Source of the DNA: an uncultured Gammaproteobacteria bacterium
GTDB taxonomy: Bacteria > Pseudomonadota > Gammaproteobacteria > JAAEPA01
Direction: 5' to 3'
Length of the DNA stretch: 64,000 nucleotides
NCBI GenBank assembly: GCA_963731655.1
Contig: CAVSWL010000019.1
Location: forward strand, 40,609-104,608
Shown here in pieces: positions 20,062 through 29,341 of the stretch (the stretch's first letter is position 1; every line of letters starts with the position of its first letter). The translations under genes were made by a program, and so were the position numbers. The notes under the pieces were generated by a model that ran no database searches, was not told the origin of the DNA, and saw only the letters and a list, made by a program, of their open reading frames with translations.

Positions 20062-21276
20062 ATGGCAAAAACGTTGGTTGTTGGTACAGGTGAAGATTCA
20101 CCTGTACCATTTCTCCGAGGAATTCTCACTCGTTCATTGCAGGATGCCGGATTATCCTTCAATAAAGCTTACAAGATTTCCTCAGTCGTACGTGATGACT
20201 TGAACGACACGGATAAAATAGCAACTTTTGAGCTGCGTAAACGGGTAGCGGAGCGTGTGCGACAGAGTTACGGGGAAGCGGCGGCGAGCCGTTATTTGCG
20301 TATCAGCCAAATTTCTGCGCCCGTCATGGTCCGCTATGAGGATGGTGAGGTAACGCCTTTTTCCAGCGGCTATCATCGGCATTATCTGGAGGCAATCAGC
20401 CTGCCATACGAAGAAGCACTGGTAGTGACCCAGAGGCTAAATGAGCAGCTAAAGAGGGACCAAGTGAGAGAAGTGAGTGCGCAGGCTCTGGAAAGGCTCA
20501 CTTACCGTTTGCTCAGCAATGACAAGGAATTTGGTCCAGCAGTGGCTCGCCGTTATTTGCTGTGGACTCAGTTTCTGCGTAGTGGACGGCCGCTGATCCT
20601 CTTGCTGGGTGGAACCGCAGGCTGTGGCAAGAGCACGTTGGCTACCGAACTTGCCAATCGTCTCGAAATCGTGCGTAGCCAGTCCACTGATGGCCTTCGA
20701 GAAGTGATGCGCATGATGTTGCCCGAGCGCCTTCTGCCGGTGCTACACACCTCTTCGTTTACCGCGTGGCAAGCGCTTCCCGAGTGGGGACGGGAAACCG
20801 ATCATGATATGCTTCTGGCAGCAGGATACCGAACCCAGGCGGAACTTCTGGCCGTGCCTTGTGAGGCTGTGATCCAACGTACATTGAAGGAACGGGTATC
20901 CATGATTTTGGAGGGGGTGCATGTTCATCCGCTGCTATTGGACAGGATTGAACGTAATACCGGTGCCATCGTTGTGCCGATCATGATTGCGGTATTAAAA
21001 CCCAATCAGCTGCGTTCGCGTATCCGGGGTCGAGGTAACCAGTTGCCACGACGGAGCTCCAAGCGCTATTTAAGGTATTTTGACGCGATATGGCGCTTGC
21101 AGTCCTATCTCTTGTCTGAGGCTGACCGAGCAAAAATCGTGATTATCCCGAATGACGACAAAGAAAAAGCCATTCAGGAAATTATGCGAACCATCATCAG
21201 TCACCTCGCTCGTGAATTCTCAGGGAATCCCAATGAAATTTTTTCCAATACTGCAGGCGATTCTGAAACCGTGTAG
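20062..21276 (+). CDS. 2-phosphoglycerate-kinase-like P-loop kinase with two ATP-cone-like N-terminal repeats
   Basis: VPFLRGILTRSL and TPFSSG repeats, GGTAGCGKST, STDGLREVMR, LHTSSF, ILEGVH. Confidence 0.75.
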   Translation: MAKTLVVGTGEDSPVPFLRGILTRSLQDAGLSFNKAYKISSVVRDDLNDTDKIATFELRKRVAERVRQSYGEAAASRYLRISQISAPVMVRYEDGEVTPFSSGYHRHYLEAISLPYEEALVVTQRLNEQLKRDQVREVSAQALERLTYRLLSNDKEFGPAVARRYLLWTQFLRSGRPLILLLGGTAGCGKSTLATELANRLEIVRSQSTDGLREVMRMMLPERLLPVLHTSSFTAWQALPEWGRETDHDMLLAAGYRTQAELLAVPCEAVIQRTLKERVSMILEGVHVHPLLLDRIERNTGAIVVPIMIAVLKPNQLRSRIRGRGNQLPRRSSKRYLRYFDAIWRLQSYLLSEADRAKIVIIPNDDKEKAIQEIMRTIISHLAREFSGNPNEIFSNTAGDSETV

Positions 21277-21316: not shown

Positions 21317-22672
21317 TTAGGATTGGTGGTCTGCCGCACGTTCTGAGTGCTGCAAGCGTACCCTCTGCGGAGGAAACTGGCAGCTAAAGCTCGATCCGCG
21401 GCCGACTTCGCTGCTGATTCGAAGTTCCCCGCTGTGCCGATCAAGCACCTGTTTTACGATCGCAAGCCCCAGGCCGGTGCCGCCGGATTTTCGAGAACGC
21501 GCACGGTCAACCCGGTAAAAACGTTCGGTGAGCCGCGGAATATGCCGTGCGGCGATGCCTTTGCCTGTATCAGTGACGGTGCAGTGTGCACCAGCCTCGT
21601 TGGTATCCCACTGAATGTGGACCTTGGCGTGCGCTGGTGTATGTTGAACGGCATTAATAATCAGATTGGAAAACGCGCTGCGCAGTTCGTCATGATTGCC
21701 TGCTAGCCAAAGTTGTGGGTTAGCCTCAAGCGTCAAGTTATGGGCGGAGCTGCCACTCAAAGCGCGGGCTTCCTGGGTAATCGAGGCGAGCAACTTAGGA
21801 ACCGGCACAGGTTCGTCTGAAGGTGGGGATTGTTTCATCTGCAAGCGGGATAAGGTCAATAGCTCATCGATGATCCGTTTCATGCGCTGGGCTTGGCTTT
21901 CCATTAGTTCTACGGAGCGTGCCCAGTTGTGCAGCTCAGCTCCAGCCGCTGTTGGCCGCAAGTTCTCCAGAAAACCCATAATTACCGTCAGAGGTGTACG
22001 TAATTCGTGAGAAACATTGGCCACGAAGTCCTGCTGAGCTTGGTTAAGGAGGTAAATTTGAGTGACATCCCTGGCGACCAACAAGTGATGGTGCGCCTTG
22101 CCGAAGGGAGTGATGCGCAACGACAGTATTTTACTTTTATCGCCGGGCGCTGTGATTTCAATGGGTTGGCTGTAATCGCCTTTATCAAGATATTCTTCGA
22201 GTACGGGATGGCGAATGAGCTGGACTAAATACTGTCCCCTGGCTTTGGGCCAGGGCAATCCAAGCATGCGCCTGGCCGCCGGATTACTCCATTCGATGAC
22301 CCCATATTCACCTAGGATAAGCACGGCATCTTCCAGGGCACTAGCGGCTTCACGGAAACGAGAAAATTTAACTTTGCGTCTTTTAGCCTGTTGTAATCGC
22401 TGGACCTCGATAAACAATGGCTCCCATAAACCGCCAGGAAATGGAGGGCGAAGCGCTTCGCCGGCGGCTAGGTGGTAGGTTAAACGGAAACCCACTGAAA
22501 GGTGCCATCCCAGATAGCCGAGCGCAACGCCGCCGAAACCGGCGATTAACCAGCGATTCTCCAGTAGAACGCCGCTGATGCCTATCAAGAAGATAGCTGA
22601 TATCCGCCAAGACTCGCTGATTAGAGCCGGAGTGAGTCGGGAGCGGCGATGTTTTTTGAATGGTTCTCCCAC
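21317..22672 (-). CDS. phoR: Phosphate regulon sensor kinase PhoR (start uncertain)
   Basis: N-terminal TM, PAS (WSNPAA...LIRHP), FVANVSHELRTPLTV, HIPRLTERFYRVD, GGTGLGLAIVK. Confidence 0.9.
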   Translation of the reverse strand: MGEPFKKHRRSRLTPALISESWRISAIFLIGISGVLLENRWLIAGFGGVALGYLGWHLSVGFRLTYHLAAGEALRPPFPGGLWEPLFIEVQRLQQAKRRKVKFSRFREAASALEDAVLILGEYGVIEWSNPAARRMLGLPWPKARGQYLVQLIRHPVLEEYLDKGDYSQPIEITAPGDKSKILSLRITPFGKAHHHLLVARDVTQIYLLNQAQQDFVANVSHELRTPLTVIMGFLENLRPTAAGAELHNWARSVELMESQAQRMKRIIDELLTLSRLQMKQSPPSDEPVPVPKLLASITQEARALSGSSAHNLTLEANPQLWLAGNHDELRSAFSNLIINAVQHTPAHAKVHIQWDTNEAGAHCTVTDTGKGIAARHIPRLTERFYRVDRARSRKSGGTGLGLAIVKQVLDRHSGELRISSEVGRGSSFSCQFPPQRVRLQHSERAADHQS

Positions 22673-22785: not shown

Positions 22786-23469
22786 TCACTGGGAGGAAAG
22801 GCGATAGTCTACGCTGCGAACGGTTTGAATCAAGCGTTCCAGTCCGAAGGGTTCCAAGGCTTTGCGCAGATGGCGGACATGAACATCGATGGTACGTTCT
22901 TCTACGTGGATTGTTTTATCCCAGATCGATTGAATCAGGTGGGTGCGGCTGTGTACTGTTTCAGGGTGAGTCATGAGAAACTTCAGCAAGCGAAATTCCG
23001 TAGGTCCCAGGCCGATCAAATGGCCATAGACGCTGACCCGACGAGTGACCGAATCGAGGCGTAACACATTAATTTATATGGAATTTAAGGGCGGCTTGGT
23101 GTTCGCACGACGTAACAGCGCGGCGATGCGCGCCACCAGTTCGCGCGGTGAGAAAGACTTAGTCATCTAATCATCGGCCCCGGCATTCAAGCCAGACTCT
23201 TTACTGTTTTCCTCCGAACCTGCGGTTAACATGATGATGGGAATATCCTGAACGAGTGTATCTTCTCGCAGCGAGTGTGTGAACTCCAGGCCCGGACACC
23301 CGGGTAACATCCAGTCCAACAGAATTAAATCGGGACGTTCTTTTTTAATGAGGGCTTGAGCCGTGTCCGCCTCTGTGTGTGCATATCCTGCCTCTGCGAG
23401 CGTCATCCCGATCATTTTCCGAATGGCAGGCTCATCCTCGACGATGGGTATTCTGGTAGGCGCACTCAT
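22786..23469 (-). pseudogene. phoB: phoB pseudogene with two in-frame stops
   Basis: REC half (PDLILLDWMLPG) and wHTH half (LGPTEFRLL...HVEERTIDVHVR) lie in one frame. TAG at 23167-23169 replaces the Y of GADDY, and TAA sits at 23074-23076. Confidence 0.9.
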
Positions 23470-23561: not shown

Positions 23562-24365
23562 TCATCCAAACCGTCCCTCGATATAGTTGGCGGTGTCTTC
23601 ATGGGTGGGGGCGACGAACATCTCGTCGGTGGCGGCATGCTCGATAACTTTGCCCATCAGCATGAAGATACATTCTTGGCTGGCGCGGCGTGCCTGGGCC
23701 ATGTTATGGGTTACGATCAAAATGGTATAGCGGCCACATAACTCCCAGATCAATTCTTCCACGGCTTCGGTTCCTTTGGGGTCCAATGCCGAGCAGGGTT
23801 CATCCATCAATAGGATATTGGGTTTAACGGGTAGCAACCGGGCAATACACAGTTTCTGCTGCTCCTCTAGGGAAAGACTGGTGGCTTTGCGTTTGAGCCG
23901 GTCTTTAACTTTGTCCCACAGCAGCACTTGTCGTAGCGAATTTTCAATAATCTCGTCCTGTTCACTCCGCGAGGCGCGTTTGCCCTCGGTGTCGAGTTTA
24001 TATCCGAACAACATATTATCGCGGATCGATAGAGGTAGAGGATTGGGGCGCTGAAAGACCATGCCAATCTGCTTGCGAACTTGTAGGAGTTCCACGTCTG
24101 AATCATAGATATTCTTATCGAACACCTTGATTGTACCCTGGATACGCACGGAGTCGAGACGCTCATTGATGCGGTTGATACTGCGCAAGAAGGTCGATTT
24201 GCCGCAACCGGAAGGACCGATGATCGAGGTGATTTTGCCCTGTTTGATATTGAGATCGATGTCGTATAGCGCTTGGAAGGTGTCATACCATAGATTCAAC
24301 TTTTCGGTATGGATGGCGCAGGGTTCGGTGTTGAGGGGTGGACTTAAGGGATATTTGGCATTCAT
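23562..24365 (-). CDS. pstB: Phosphate ABC transporter ATPase PstB (degenerate signature motif)
   Basis: GPSGCGKST, GMVFQRPNP, MDEPCSALDP, VTHNMAQA, YIEGRFG; signature reads LSLEEQQK. Confidence 0.92.
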   Translation of the reverse strand: MNAKYPLSPPLNTEPCAIHTEKLNLWYDTFQALYDIDLNIKQGKITSIIGPSGCGKSTFLRSINRINERLDSVRIQGTIKVFDKNIYDSDVELLQVRKQIGMVFQRPNPLPLSIRDNMLFGYKLDTEGKRASRSEQDEIIENSLRQVLLWDKVKDRLKRKATSLSLEEQQKLCIARLLPVKPNILLMDEPCSALDPKGTEAVEELIWELCGRYTILIVTHNMAQARRASQECIFMLMGKVIEHAATDEMFVAPTHEDTANYIEGRFG

Positions 24366-24409
24366 TAGTTAGGCCTATTTAGCCTAGCGGGTAACGGTTT
24401 GTCAAAGTC

Positions 24410-25174
24410 TTATCCGAATCGACCTTCCACGTAGTCGCGGGTGCGCGGATCGACGATCTGGCCATCGAAGATGGCTTCAGTCGATCCGATCTCGATGCAG
24501 CGACCATCGAGAAAAAAAGCGATGCGATCCGCCAAACGGCGGGCCTGCTGTACAAGGTTGGTCACTAGAATAATGGTCATGTCGGCGCTAAGCACTTTGA
24601 GTACTTCTTCGATTCGCATGGTGGTTACGGGATCAACGGCGATGGAAAATTCGTCGAGCATCAACACCTCTGGATTTTGCGATAGAGCACGCGCAATGGT
24701 AAGCCGCTGTTGTTGCCCGCCGGATAGCAGACTCCCGAGCGTGTGAAGCCGGTCTTTTACTTCGTCCCATAACGCGGCGCGCTGCAAGCACATTTCGATG
24801 ATCTGGTCCAATGTGGCTTTGTCTTTAATTCCTGCCAGGCGGGGTGCCAGCGCCACATTATCGTAAATGGATAAAGGCAGCCCTACCGGTAATGGGAAGA
24901 CCACGCCGATTCGCCGGCGAAATCCATAGACATTACGCAGTTGATGGATATTTCGGCCATTAAAAAAGATCTTACCCTCTACTCGCATATTTCGGTCAAA
25001 CGCATCCATCCGGTTGATGGCTTTGAGGAAGGAAGTTTTACCGGAATTTGCCGGGCCGATGATTCCGAATATCTCGTTTTTATGTATTTCTAGATCGATT
25101 CCGCTCAAAGCCGGCGTGCCGCCGTAACGGATCGTCAAGTTCTGAAATTTTAATTGGGCGAGGGTATCTGACAT
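24410..25174 (-). CDS. pstB: Second PstB ATPase (degenerate Q-loop, D-loop and H-switch)
   Basis: GPANSGKTS, VFPLP, intact LSGGQQQRL, LDEFSIAVDP, VTN, YVEGRFG. Confidence 0.9.
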   Translation of the reverse strand: MSDTLAQLKFQNLTIRYGGTPALSGIDLEIHKNEIFGIIGPANSGKTSFLKAINRMDAFDRNMRVEGKIFFNGRNIHQLRNVYGFRRRIGVVFPLPVGLPLSIYDNVALAPRLAGIKDKATLDQIIEMCLQRAALWDEVKDRLHTLGSLLSGGQQQRLTIARALSQNPEVLMLDEFSIAVDPVTTMRIEEVLKVLSADMTIILVTNLVQQARRLADRIAFFLDGRCIEIGSTEAIFDGQIVDPRTRDYVEGRFG

Positions 25175-25207: not shown

Positions 25208-26137
25208 TCACCACTTCTTCTTGGTGCGCAGGTACATGCGGAATGCGATGGATGCGCTATTCATGAACAGTACCAGGGTAATGAGCACCAAAGCTACCCC
25301 GAATGGTAGATTCTCAGGTACGCCTGGAACCTGGGTGGATACCACGAACAGGTGCAATGACAGCGCCATGGTTTGATCGAATAAGCCCTGGGGTAAAAAG
25401 GGGCTGAAGAACACCGCACCCGTGAACATAATCGGTGCCGTCTCCCCGGCCGTTCTCGAAACCTCTAAGATGATTCCGGTCAGTATGCCGCTAACGGCAT
25501 TTGGCAGCACGACCTTGCGGATGGTTTGCCAACGGGTGGCTCCCATGGCCCAGCAAGCCTCACGGAAGGACTGCGGAACAGCCTGTAGCGCTTCCTTGCT
25601 GGCTACGATTACCACCGGCATGGTCATGATGGCCAGGGTTAGGCTGGCGGCGAGTATGCTCGTGCCCATTCCGGCGAAGATCACGAATGCGCCCACACCG
25701 TGCAACGCATGAACGATAGAAGGTACACCCGCCAGATTAATAATGGCGAGATTGATTAGCCGCGTAAGCCAGTTGTCCGGCGCGAATTCACTCAAATATA
25801 TTGCCGCGGCGACTCCCAGTGGCACGGATATCAGCAATGCCACGGTGACTAGCCATACCGTGCCCAGCATGGCGGGGAAGATTCCGCCAGCCGTCATTCC
25901 ATTGGTCGGTTCTGTAAACAGGAAATCGATGGAAATTACAGGACCACCTTTGATCACCAAGGTGATCAAAATGATCAACACGGGCGCGACCAGCAGCAAG
26001 GTCATCAGCAGGAAGAGGAGGCGAAATAGGGTTTGAATCCGTTTGTTGTGGAGATTTGTTTCAGAGGGGGCAAACAAGGGATTATTTATTAAGGCGGCAT
26101 TTTGTAATGCATTGCTTGATGTAGCGCTATCCATCAT
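25208..26137 (-). CDS. pstA: Phosphate ABC permease PstA
   Basis: NLAGVPSIV, EAA loop (REACWAMGATRWQ) and GETAP. Confidence 0.93.
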   Translation of the reverse strand: MMDSATSSNALQNAALINNPLFAPSETNLHNKRIQTLFRLLFLLMTLLLVAPVLIILITLVIKGGPVISIDFLFTEPTNGMTAGGIFPAMLGTVWLVTVALLISVPLGVAAAIYLSEFAPDNWLTRLINLAIINLAGVPSIVHALHGVGAFVIFAGMGTSILAASLTLAIMTMPVVIVASKEALQAVPQSFREACWAMGATRWQTIRKVVLPNAVSGILTGIILEVSRTAGETAPIMFTGAVFFSPFLPQGLFDQTMALSLHLFVVSTQVPGVPENLPFGVALVLITLVLFMNSASIAFRMYLRTKKKW

Positions 26138-26141
26138 AGAG

Positions 26142-27086
26142 TTACTCCCTACGGATACCCTTTACAATCAGGTCTGCGCATAGATTGATCAGGAAAGTAA
26201 TCATGAATAAAAAGATACCGATAGTGAATAACGCGCCATAATGGTCCGAACCCACGGCGGTTTCACCGAGCTCGGCGGCAATTGTGGCCGTTAGGGCACG
26301 CACTGAATCGAATATACTGCTGGGAATGTTTATCGAATGCCCGGTGGCCATCAGCACGGCCATCGTCTCACCAAATGCCCGCCCCACGCCCAACAAAATA
26401 CCGCCGAGCAAGCCATTCTTGGCCGCCGGAATGACTACTTTGAAAGTAACCTGCCAGCGGGTGGCCCCTAAGGCTTCGGCGGCTTCCCGAAAAGACTCAG
26501 GCACCGCTTTTAAGGAGTCTTCCGCGATGGAGACCATGATCGGCGCCGCCATAAGCCCAAGGATTATACCGGCATTGAGCACATTCAGACCGACCGGGAC
26601 ATCGAACCAATAGATGATCAAGGGATTCATGATCGTCAAACCGATAAATCCCCAAACTACTGAAGGAATCGCGGCGAGCAATTCGACCAGAATTTTTAAT
26701 GACTCCTTGATCTTTCCGGTAGCAAACTCGGAAATGTAGATCGCCGCACCGAGAGAAAAGGGAACGGCGACGGCCATGGCCAGGGTCGTGACGCTGGCTG
26801 TGCCGGCGATTAGCGCCAGTATGCCATAGGTGGGATGGTACTCAGACGTGGGACGCCAACGGGGCGAAAGAAAAAAATCGTGAATATCTAAGGTATTGAC
26901 GATGAAGGCCAAACCCTGTTCAAAGACGAAAAATACAATGCTGAGAATAAACAAAATCGCCGATATCCCAGCAAGAAATAATATGAACTGGATAATCTTG
27001 TCGACGTACCAATCTACGGTGCGTTTATCGAATTCGGCATCGGCCTGCGTTGTCGCACGGGTTGCTTGATTTAGAAATCGAGCCAT
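26142..27086 (-). CDS. pstC: Phosphate ABC permease PstC
   Basis: ELLAAIPSVVWG, REAAEALGATRWQ, GRAFGETMAV. Start 27086 chosen because it avoids overlap with phoU. Confidence 0.93.
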   Translation of the reverse strand: MARFLNQATRATTQADAEFDKRTVDWYVDKIIQFILFLAGISAILFILSIVFFVFEQGLAFIVNTLDIHDFFLSPRWRPTSEYHPTYGILALIAGTASVTTLAMAVAVPFSLGAAIYISEFATGKIKESLKILVELLAAIPSVVWGFIGLTIMNPLIIYWFDVPVGLNVLNAGIILGLMAAPIMVSIAEDSLKAVPESFREAAEALGATRWQVTFKVVIPAAKNGLLGGILLGVGRAFGETMAVLMATGHSINIPSSIFDSVRALTATIAAELGETAVGSDHYGALFTIGIFLFMITFLINLCADLIVKGIRRE

Positions 27087-27090
27087 CGTG

Positions 27091-28176
27091 TTAGTTACCT
27101 TCATCGCCACGAAGGGTATCCATCAAGTCGCGTACTTGAAGAGCAATTTCGCGATACATCTCTTCGAACCGTTGATTGAGTTCTTTGGGATCGAGGCTAT
27201 CGACTAAGCTTCCCACATCCCATTCGAGAGCCACGGTGTGGAACGGGATCGTTTTGATATAGGATTTTACGGGACCCTGGAGACTGACAATAACATGGAA
27301 AGCAGCTAGTTCTTCGGTCACGAAATCGAATTTCTTCGGGCGCTGCTCGGTTAGGCCCACGCCGTGCTTTTCTAAGAATGTTACGACACGAGGATCGATT
27401 TCCGAGGAGGGTTGGCGGCCAGCGCTGACGTACCGGCCTTGGCGAGGAAACATTTTGCGAACGATGGCTTCGGCCATCTGGCTTTGCCCGGCATTGTTCT
27501 CGTCAAGAAATAAAATATGATAGATCTTTGGAGGTTTAGTTTCACCGGTCACGGCGAATACCGTATCCTCACAAATGTTTCTGGCTTGGTCGGAGATCCT
27601 TCCCAAATAGCTGAAAATGACCAGCATCCCGAACAGATCTTTGATGTTCTCTTGACCATTCTTGGATAATAAATCCGCGTAGATGGTCTCGAAGGTGCGC
27701 TCGGTTTGAACCGTCAGAGATTTGGTCGCCTTCGCCTTTTCGGCGTTACCCTCGTGGAAGGCTTGCATGGCCAAGTCGAACACGTGGCGCGCTTCTTCGG
27801 CTATCAGGCTCACCTCCCGTACCAGTGAATCCTGGGGAGGATGGGAAAGCTGTACCGCTTGCCGGCACAAGGTTACTGCGTAATCTCCAATCCGTTCTAA
27901 AGCAATGTTGATCCGCATGACCGAGGAGATGAGGCGAAGCGGTCCGGCAGTGGGTAGATGGACGGCCAAAAAGGCGTTACATAGTTTCTCAGTTTGGCGT
28001 ACGTAACGGTTAATGGGCAAGTCGTGAAGAATTGTGCGATAAGCCAGCGTATGATTTCCGGTCACAAGGGCGTGCACCGCGTTTTCTACCGCATCCTGAA
28101 CGTCCTTGGCCAGTGCTTCTATGCGATCTTTAATGCGAGTAAGGTCCTGCTCCAGGCGTTTTTCGTAATGGCTCAT
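27091..28176 (-). CDS. phoU: PhoU fused to a C-terminal ArsC/LMW-PTP-like domain lacking the catalytic CX5R
   Basis: Two PhoU repeats (LERIGDYA; LGRISDQARNICE), then ILFLDENNAGQSQMAEA...SAG. Confidence 0.85.
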   Translation of the reverse strand: MSHYEKRLEQDLTRIKDRIEALAKDVQDAVENAVHALVTGNHTLAYRTILHDLPINRYVRQTEKLCNAFLAVHLPTAGPLRLISSVMRINIALERIGDYAVTLCRQAVQLSHPPQDSLVREVSLIAEEARHVFDLAMQAFHEGNAEKAKATKSLTVQTERTFETIYADLLSKNGQENIKDLFGMLVIFSYLGRISDQARNICEDTVFAVTGETKPPKIYHILFLDENNAGQSQMAEAIVRKMFPRQGRYVSAGRQPSSEIDPRVVTFLEKHGVGLTEQRPKKFDFVTEELAAFHVIVSLQGPVKSYIKTIPFHTVALEWDVGSLVDSLDPKELNQRFEEMYREIALQVRDLMDTLRGDEGN

Positions 28177-28465: not shown

Positions 28466-29341
28466 TCAGTGACAGCTAACCTTGTGCGCGGGAGCATAAC
28501 CTTTCTTGAGAATGATGCATTGACCTGTATCACTCAGGATCCATTCGAGGTATTTTTTGATTTCGCCGCTGGGTTTTCCGTTGGTGTACATAAATAGAGG
28601 GCGGGCGATCGGATAGCTGCGGTCGCTGGCAGTGGCCACGCTGGGGCTGATGCAGGGTTCGCCTGCTTTAAGAGAGATACAAGCCATTTTAACCCGATCG
28701 GTGGCATAGGCCAGTCCACTGTAACCGATGGCGCAGGGTGTTTTTTCGACCAAGTCAACTACGTCTTTGGACCCGTGCATGTCACGAGTACCTAGTTTGT
28801 AATCGCGTTGTTTACCCAGAATAGCTTCACGAAAATAAGCGTAAGTCCCCGAACTATTCTGCCGGCTTACCAAGACGATCTGCTGAGCTTTGCAGCCGGG
28901 CACCTGAACACCCAGATCCGACCATTTGGTAGTTTTTCCTTCTTCGCCATAGATTTCCGCCAACTGGGCAATGTCGAATGAATTTAAGGGGTTATTTTTA
29001 TTTACAAAGACGGCTAATGCATCGTAACCCACGATATATTTGACTGGATACTGTCCGCGTTGATTGGCGAGCGACAATTCCTTGGATTTCATTTCGCGAC
29101 TCGCATTGGCGATATCCACAGTGCCATTGATCAAGGCGGCGATCCCCGTGCCGGAACCACCTCCGGTTACGGAAACGGCTACATCGGGTTCAACCTTCCG
29201 GTACTCTTCGGCCCAGGCTTGGGCTACATTGACCAAGGTGTCGGAGCCCTTGTTCTGGATCAGAGTGCGTGCGTCGGCGGTTGTGTAAAGAAGGGCTAGC
29301 GTAGCGATCAAAAAGGATATTGTTCGATGTTGTAAATACAT
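28466..29341 (-). CDS. pstS: Phosphate-binding protein PstS
   Basis: Signal peptide, KGSDT, GGGSGTG, ANASR, SSGTY and YPIARPLFMY. Confidence 0.93.
   Translation of the reverse strand: MYLQHRTISFLIATLALLYTTADARTLIQNKGSDTLVNVAQAWAEEYRKVEPDVAVSVTGGGSGTGIAALINGTVDIANASREMKSKELSLANQRGQYPVKYIVGYDALAVFVNKNNPLNSFDIAQLAEIYGEEGKTTKWSDLGVQVPGCKAQQIVLVSRQNSSGTYAYFREAILGKQRDYKLGTRDMHGSKDVVDLVEKTPCAIGYSGLAYATDRVKMACISLKAGEPCISPSVATASDRSYPIARPLFMYTNGKPSGEIKKYLEWILSDTGQCIILKKGYAPAHKVSCH

Follow-up and report, generated by a model that had tools for sequence, protein, structure and literature searches.

Two reciprocally degenerate PstB paralogues as the predicted asymmetric motor of a distinct Pst phosphate importer

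We examined a stretch of 64,000 nucleotides (the window) from the genome of an uncultured gammaproteobacterium (GenBank assembly GCA_963731655.1) that carries a phosphate-importer (pst) operon with two adjacent genes for PstB-type ATPases. We refer to these paralogues as B2 and, immediately downstream of it, B1. The operon comprises pstS, a phoU-fusion gene, pstC, pstA, B2, and B1, with a phoB pseudogene and phoR beyond B1 (Table 1), and its gene order recurs in related loci. PstS, PstC, and PstA are encoded in one operon and each scores over its NCBIfam cut-off, as expected of a Pst importer. In Escherichia coli, inorganic phosphate (Pi) is coordinated by Arg/Glu pairs in transmembrane helix 5 of PstA (R220/E224) and PstC (R237/E241) (PMC12976172, excerpt). 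In alignments against 9k3x_A and 9k3s_B, the PstA motif SRTAGET aligned with R220/E224 and the PstC motif GRAFGET with R237/E241, so the Pi-coordinating pairs are retained.

An initial annotation, made from the letters of this DNA alone, had reported two PstB subunits whose motifs were degenerate in a reciprocal manner. Both open reading frames (ORFs) and all of the quoted motifs were found on the minus strand at exactly the positions given there, and every motif was re-read from the DNA (Table 1). The catalytic half of B1 (Walker A and B and the A-, Q-, and H-loops) is consensus, and its signature is degenerate; Leu166 and Glu167 within that signature were invariant among 21 orthologues. In B2 the signature is perfect, and the Q-loop Gln and the switch His are replaced by Pro94 and Asn206, both invariant across the aligned orthologues. 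The departures in B2 also include DEP to DEF and, in the D-loop, SALD to IAVD. The Walker A motif of B2, which had been called altered, does differ from the GPSGCGKST of PstB but remains within the general P-loop pattern GxxxxGK[ST], with Lys46 invariant and Thr47 present in at least 90% of 22 orthologues. The A-loop Tyr17 and the Walker B residues Asp174 and Glu175 were invariant as well (22 sequences).

Table 1. Positions in the window of the operon genes, the ATPase motifs, and neighboring features (strand "-" denotes minus).
Feature	Positions	Strand	Basis
pstS, PstS-family periplasmic phosphate-binding protein	28466-29341	-	TIGR02136, 240.8 bits (cut-off 206.6)
phoU-fusion gene, PhoU + ArsC/LMW-PTP-fold domain	27091-28176	-	Pfam, structure model, co-occurrence with B2/B1
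PhoU-fusion P-loop LDENNAGQS	27481-27507	-	nucleophile Cys replaced by Asp225
pstC, permease	26142-27110	-	TIGR02138, 281.1 bits (cut-off 196.45)
pstA, permease	25208-26137	-	TIGR00974, 260 bits (cut-off 193.45)
B2, PstB paralogue, 254 aa	24410-25174	-	TIGR00972, 279.6 bits (cut-off 343.2)
B2 Walker A GPANSGKTS	25031-25057	-	re-read from DNA
B2 Pro94 replacing Q-loop Gln (VFP)	24893-24895	-	120/120 listed homologues; invariant
B2 signature LSGGQQQ, perfect	24707-24727	-	re-read from DNA
B2 Walker B + D-loop stretch VLMLDEFSIAVD (DEFSIAVD)	24632-24667	-	re-read from DNA
B2 Asn206 replacing switch His (VTN)	24557-24559	-	119/120 listed homologues; invariant
B1, PstB paralogue, 267 aa	23562-24365	-	TIGR00972, 322.2 bits (cut-off 343.2)
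B1 Walker A GPSGCGKST	24192-24218	-	re-read from DNA
B1 Q-loop Gln105 (VFQ)	24051-24053	-	re-read from DNA
B1 signature LSLEEQQ, degenerate	23856-23876	-	re-read from DNA
B1 Walker B + D-loop ILLMDEPCSALD	23781-23816	-	re-read from DNA
B1 switch His220 (VTH)	23706-23708	-	re-read from DNA
phoB pseudogene, directly downstream of B1	22786-23469	-	frame with two in-frame stops
phoR, sensor kinase, open frame	21317-22672	-	TIGR02966, 409.5 bits (cut-off 334.2)

Both proteins belong to the ATPase family of ATP-binding cassette (ABC) transporters (PF00005, cut-off 25; B1, 97.5 bits; B2, 80.2 bits). TIGR00972, the PstB equivalog family, was the best family of each, yet both scored under its cut-off. 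The full canonical ABC motif set was present in all 68 canonical PstB reference sequences, and neither paralogue carries it in one polypeptide: B1 is without LSGGQ, and B2 is without the Q-loop Gln and the switch His. We compared B1 and B2 with 107 alignment columns that are conserved in these 68 PstBs. B2 departed at 25 of the columns, with clusters in Walker A (S to A, G to N, ST to TS), the Q-loop (Q to P, N to V, P to G), the position following Walker B (P to F), the D-loop (S to I), and the H-loop (HNM to NLV). B1 departed at 19, clustered in and just before the signature (GGQ to LE[EQ], R to K, A to P).

An ABC site combines Walker A and B and the A-, Q-, and H-loops of one nucleotide-binding domain (NBD) with the signature of the other NBD (PMC7756269, excerpt). 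With this head-to-tail geometry, only a B1·B2 heterodimer would yield one consensus site, and a homodimer of either B1 or B2 would have two defective sites. The two NBDs are unlike, and the Q-loop, H-loop, and Walker A of B2 and the signature of B1 deviate in the same composite site. The initial annotation had placed all defects in one site; this stands for the Q-loop, the H-switch, Walker A, and the signature but is slightly weakened for the IAVD D-loop, because D-loops are located at the center of the dimer interface and belong to neither site alone (PMC7756269, excerpt). Substitution of the catalytic Walker B Glu in the degenerate site, which is typical but not universal, was not found in B2, where Glu175 is invariant.

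The substitutions are not private to this genome, the outcome that was to have refuted the initial annotation. In a search of a protein collection with B2, the best 120 of 8000 scored homologues (73 to 100% identity) all contained VFP, IAVD, and LSGGQ, and VTN was found in 119, the remaining one having been missed by the regular expression. We then scanned pst loci with one genome per species and kept 80 loci. A B2 orthologue (55 to 75% identity) was present in 19 of these (L005-L023), and in all 19 a B1 orthologue (56 to 77% identity) lay immediately downstream on the same strand. Every one of the 19 B2 copies had the Q-loop Pro, the switch Asn, DEF, IAVD or IAID, and LSGGQQQ. The catalytic-half motifs were intact in all 18 complete B1 copies, which had the signature L-[SQAL]-L-E-[EQAK]-Q-Q; the nineteenth copy was truncated at a contig end. 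The 19 loci span seven phyla named in record titles (Pseudomonadota, Planctomycetota, Myxococcota, Acidobacteriota, Poribacteria, Verrucomicrobiota, and Binatota), and the Pseudomonadota among them include a Chromatiaceae and an Accumulibacter metagenome-assembled genome (MAG). The remaining 61 loci and the second pstB of the window's genome were canonical, including both copies of the Bacillus-type tandem PstB pairs (L035, L036, L050, and L078). The alignment of homologous tandem pairs that the initial annotation had called for therefore bears it out: an LSLEEQ-type B1 and a VFP/VTN/IAVD B2 are conserved and strictly co-occur, a pattern far beyond chance.

Two further loci contained deviating PstB-like ATPases. 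In a Poribacteria MAG (L018, 8480-9277), a third ATPase, on a long branch of the tree, lies downstream of the B2/B1 pair and has the motifs GPTNSGKST, VFR, LSIGQQQ, FDEPCGELD, and ATN; a short PhoU comes next. In a Nostoc MAG (L026, 7416-8240), a second cyanobacterial PstB adjoining the canonical one has its Q-loop Gln replaced by Pro (MVFPKPNL) but retains LSGGQ and the switch His; it clusters with cyanobacterial PstBs and not with B2, and looks like an independent, partial parallel to B2.

Phylogenetic trees were built under LG+G4 and under a site-mixture model, and the same B1 and B2 clades were recovered in both. B1 (19 sequences) and B2 (20 sequences) each formed one side of a branch with full support (Shimodaira-Hasegawa-like approximate likelihood ratio test [SH-aLRT], 100), on long stems (0.91 for B1 and 1.09 for B2). 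The branching orders inside the two clades mirror one another, and the pairwise-identity matrices of B1 and B2 across 21 loci were strongly correlated (r = 0.89; Mantel test, 0 of 1000). Together, the mirrored branching and the correlated matrices indicate that the pair is inherited, and has been transferred, as one unit. The origin of the two genes is less sharply defined. The B1 and B2 of the window are 34 to 39% identical to orthologues of the other paralogue, and canonical PstBs are 43 to 54% identical to B1 or B2, which is above the identity between B1 and B2. Free trees placed B1 and B2 apart with weak support. A single clade of B1 plus B2 was retained in an approximately unbiased (AU) test (p-AU, 0.71), the constrained tree being 14.85 log-likelihood units better, so that a single duplication is allowed as the origin of both; this result is weak because B1 and B2 are both on long branches.

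The initial annotation had also proposed an estimate of dN/dS, the ratio of nonsynonymous to synonymous substitution rates. Since the nearest DNA relatives of the window are only 73% identical at the protein level, dN/dS was estimated (Nei-Gojobori) from 8 closer locus pairs among related loci. Both paralogues are under purifying selection (B2, 0.067 to 0.33; B1, 0.070 to 0.23), in the manner of the permeases of the same loci (PstA, 0.03 to 0.31; PstC, 0.04 to 0.35). Mean identity was 67% for B1 and for B2 across 21 loci and the seven phyla.

In a set of 31 relatives, 3 genomes had a B2 orthologue (E ≤ 1e-85), namely, the window's genome itself and two other genomes of its family; 28 other families of its class had none (0/28 at the same threshold). 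In a wider sample of the phylum, at least 29 of 401 genomes and at least 12 of 212 genera had a B2 orthologue; these are lower bounds because 6 candidates were scored per genome. All 28 foreign carriers fall outside the class of the window, which suggests transfer of the pair into the window's lineage.

In some genomes the pair is the only PstB available. Five of five pair-carrying genomes that are 95 to 100% complete (G039, G078, G082, G086, and G118) had no PstB over the TIGR00972 cut-off, and their sole strong PstB matches were the adjacent B1 and B2. As a control, 13 of 14 model genomes showed a PstB over that cut-off. It follows from this gene content that the B2/B1 pair must be the motor of the transporter in those five genomes. 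The window's genome (G000) has a second, canonical pst cluster (contig C41, locus L002, 381-3772; pstC, pstA, pstB, and pstS), the single PstB of which carries all consensus motifs and scores 375.4 bits against TIGR00972.

Taken together, these data make it very likely that B1 and B2 are the unlike ATPase subunits of an ancient Pst variant (PstS, PstC, PstA, B2, and B1), in which they would form a heterodimer with one consensus and one degenerate ATP site. The complete catalytic site would consist of the B1 loops and the LSGGQ of B2, and the degenerate site of the B2 loops (Pro for Gln and Asn for His) and the LSLEEQ of B1. With the adenine-stacking Tyr, the Lys/Thr of Walker A, and the Asp-Glu of Walker B all present in B2, the degenerate site is probably not empty; it most likely binds ATP and holds the dimer together, with hydrolysis there slow or absent. 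Transport would then be powered by hydrolysis in the one consensus site, at a cost of about 1 ATP per cycle, in the manner of heterodimeric ABC exporters, and the degenerate site may have a regulatory part. The initial annotation had argued for an obligate heterodimer under selection rather than random decay, and it is supported in this by the co-occurrence of B1 and B2 in 19 of 19 loci, by the clades at 100, by dN/dS, and by the lack of a canonical PstB over the cut-off in all five high-quality genomes with the pair.

It is important to note that several points weigh against this interpretation. For all members, sequence is the source of both the predicted heterodimer and the state assigned to the second site. 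The degenerate site keeps its catalytic Walker B Glu, which is the residue that degenerate sites of exporters most often lack (PMC7756269, excerpt), so residual hydrolysis is possible, and the D-loop change of B2, at the center of the interface, may affect the consensus site too. The prevalence figures from the 401 genomes are lower bounds only. In this genome, B1 has Asp28 (codon at 24282-24284) next to the A-loop Tyr, within the consensus site, instead of the Gly found in at least 90% of orthologues; a related strain (metagenome run X2) also has Gly, and Asp28 is thus a private change. Further, the canonical pst operon on C41 and the phoB pseudogene beside B1 make the use of the operon in this organism uncertain.

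One alternative is that both composite sites are active, with the changes retuning the second site (slower, sequential, or differently regulated) and two ATP being consumed per cycle. The invariance of Lys46, Tyr17, and Asp174-Glu175 in B2 would fit this, as would that of the substituted residues themselves (B2 Pro94 and Asn206; B1 Leu166 and Glu167), which points to a specific new chemistry more than to simple loss. However, the Q-loop Gln, the switch His, and both signature glycines are gone from the same site in every orthologue, and these residues are needed for hydrolysis in ABC ATPases (PMC7756269, excerpt), so that we consider two active sites unlikely. A second alternative has the transporter powered by B1 homodimers or by the canonical PstB of C41, with B2 as an accessory or regulatory ATP-binding protein outside transport. 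The fully canonical PstB in the second operon of this genome speaks for it, and the adjacent PstB genes of Enterococcus faecalis have nonoverlapping functions (PMC12096839, excerpt). Yet in a B1 homodimer the signatures of both sites would be degenerate, LSGGQ comes from B2 alone where a canonical PstB is lacking (0 of 5 genomes over the cut-off), and the two genes are always adjacent (19/19) and co-inherited (r = 0.89), which together leave this alternative very improbable. That selection has relaxed and one or both duplicates are decaying, as their scores below the equivalog cut-off and the true decay of the neighboring phoB might suggest, is hardly credible given the 67% mean identity of both proteins across seven phyla, dN/dS values (0.07 to 0.33) equal to those of the permeases, the invariance of the altered residues, and a comparison with X2 in which phoB has 11 nonsynonymous and 5 synonymous differences plus a 4-base deletion and B1 only 1 and 2, respectively. 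We therefore retain the heterodimer of B1 and B2 with one consensus site as the preferred interpretation.

The gene between pstS and pstC encodes a PhoU fusion protein. The protein contains two PF01895 stretches (82.7 bits) and scores 123.4 bits against TIGR02135, just under the cut-off of 130.25. In an AlphaFold model (predicted local distance difference test [pLDDT], 88.8; predicted template modeling [TM] score [pTM], 0.79), its N-terminal part matches Pseudomonas aeruginosa PhoU (4q25; TM score, 0.93), with the six-helix, two-repeat fold of PhoU. The C-terminal domain matches PF01451 (46 bits) and pI258-type ArsC (1jf8; TM score, 0.86) and also low-molecular-weight protein tyrosine phosphatases (LMW-PTP). 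Its P-loop does not have the pattern C-X5-R-(S/T): the nucleophile Cys position is occupied by Asp in 13 of 14 orthologues and by Ser in 1, and the Arg is lost too in the window's copy (LDENNAGQS). Because the nucleophile Cys is replaced and the rest of the P-loop varies, the domain is not a cysteine phosphatase or reductase. We also considered phosphate sensing by this P-loop and dropped it, the loop being variable beyond Asp225 among the 14 orthologues.

The fusion is associated with the ATPase pair. A full-length copy was found in 13 of the 19 related loci, and two of the six loci without it are cut upstream. In the phylum sample, the fusion occurred in 28 of 401 genomes, comprising 27 of the 29 B2 carriers and 1 of 372 noncarriers (an 84%-complete genome), and it was on the same contig as B2 in every carrier compared. 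With the PhoU fusion set as partner, a structure prediction of its complex with B2 and B1 scored 0.00 against a mark of 0.32, a value that counts neither for nor against binding; the B1·B2 pairing itself is outside this score.

The phoB gene downstream of B1 is one continuous frame broken by TAG (23167-23169), at the conserved Tyr of the motif GADDY, and by TAA (23074-23076). Within the window's genome this gene gives the strongest match to PhoB, and none there passes the family cut-off. A metagenome contig of run X2, from another study, retains the TAG, reads GAA in place of the TAA, and shows the 4-base deletion at 23425. Over the same comparison, the phoU fusion has no nonsynonymous and 8 synonymous differences, and B2 has one difference, unclassified. 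Two sister-genus genomes have an intact phoB at the same place. Thus, phoB is a true, lineage-specific pseudogene. In one sister-genus genome (G001; locus L088, 1700-3020), phoR aligns as two abutting pieces with a frame change near 1990, possibly because of a frameshift or a misassembly.

A gene for a 2-phosphoglycerate-kinase-like P-loop protein with an ATP-cone domain adjoins the operon on the plus strand (20062-21276) and is also found beside the operon in 4 of the 19 related loci (L005, L007, L013, and L014). We searched the window for an E. coli-type Pho box (CTGTCATNNNNCTGTCAT, up to 3 mismatches) and obtained 3 matches where 4.5 were expected by chance; none of these was upstream of pstS. 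A pattern of this type says little about an organism so far from E. coli. In one metatranscriptome run (X11, contigs only), short contigs with 0 to 2 mismatches covered parts of pstS, the phoU fusion, pstC, and pstA; the only contig on B2 came from a relative (91% identical), and B1 had no usable one, so that these contigs are evidence neither of expression nor of silence.

The closest known system is E. coli PstSCAB2 (PMC12976172, excerpt), which shares its subunit families and its operon logic with the present system (PstS, PstC, PstA, PstB-type ATPases, and a PhoU-type protein) and the cryo-electron microscopy structures of which (9k3s, 9k3x, and 9k3y) were the best matches in the PDB of both B1 (E = 2.4e-69) and B2 (E = 1.9e-58). 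It differs in that its PstB is a homodimer with two identical consensus ATP sites, whereas here two paralogues provide one, and in that PhoU is here fused to an ArsC/LMW-PTP-fold domain. Two unlike NBDs are also found in heterodimeric type I ABC exporters that have one degenerate nucleotide-binding site (TM287/288, TmrAB, TAP1/TAP2 [ABCB2/B3], and CFTR), in which the consensus site performs hydrolysis (PMC7756269, excerpt). In those exporters, however, the NBDs are fused to transmembrane domains, while the present system, a type I importer, has its NBDs as separate subunits and includes a binding protein; moreover, its degenerate site retains the Walker B Glu and has lost the Q-loop Gln instead.

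Operons of pst genes that end in two adjacent copies of pstB are known from Firmicutes (PstBA/PstBB of Bacillus subtilis and PstB1/PstB2 of E. faecalis; PMC12096839, excerpt), and the tandem PstBs presumably form a heterodimer. Unlike B1 and B2, they fall outside the B1 and B2 clades; both E. faecalis PstBs have motifs identical to those of E. coli (PMC12096839, excerpt), and Bacillus-type tandem pairs have canonical motifs in both copies (PMC12096839 and PMC11466899, excerpts). Importers with one degenerate ATP site do exist among ATPases with fused NBDs, such as RbsA and NupO of B. subtilis (PMC11466899, excerpt). Those belong to another importer class and have two NBDs fused in one polypeptide with the Walker A Lys of the degenerate site lost; here there are two separate genes, and Walker A is intact. 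Neither a PstB pair with reciprocal degeneration nor a PhoU::ArsC/LMW-PTP-like fusion turned up in the literature covered, which excluded most subscription journals. As far as we could find, the analysis supports the asymmetric design with one consensus site, known from exporters, as new for a type I phosphate importer.

A more speculative extension, and one we regard as doubtful, is that the motor and the PhoU::pseudo-ArsC fusion together make up a self-regulating, low-cost importer. ATP in the degenerate site would act as a permanent latch, with 1 ATP spent per cycle; the Leu-Glu of the B1 signature would be active there, for example by blocking or sensing the gamma-phosphate; and the fused PhoU would read this site and throttle uptake, partly independently of PhoBR. 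Such PhoBR-independent self-regulation, if true, would fit the loss of the adjacent phoB in this lineage.

To our knowledge, depictions of Pst, the textbook example of a high-affinity importer of phosphate, always show PstB as a homodimer and its two ATP sites as equivalent. The operon described here would represent a second Pst design, ancient and strongly conserved, in at least seven phyla. One of its carrier genera, Accumulibacter, is a polyphosphate accumulator used in wastewater phosphorus removal. The design would also link a degenerate ATP site to an undescribed PhoU fusion protein. The purpose of degenerate ATP sites (energy saving, directionality, or regulation) has so far been addressed almost only in exporters, and a natural type I importer whose NBDs are free and can be expressed separately would allow it to be tested directly.

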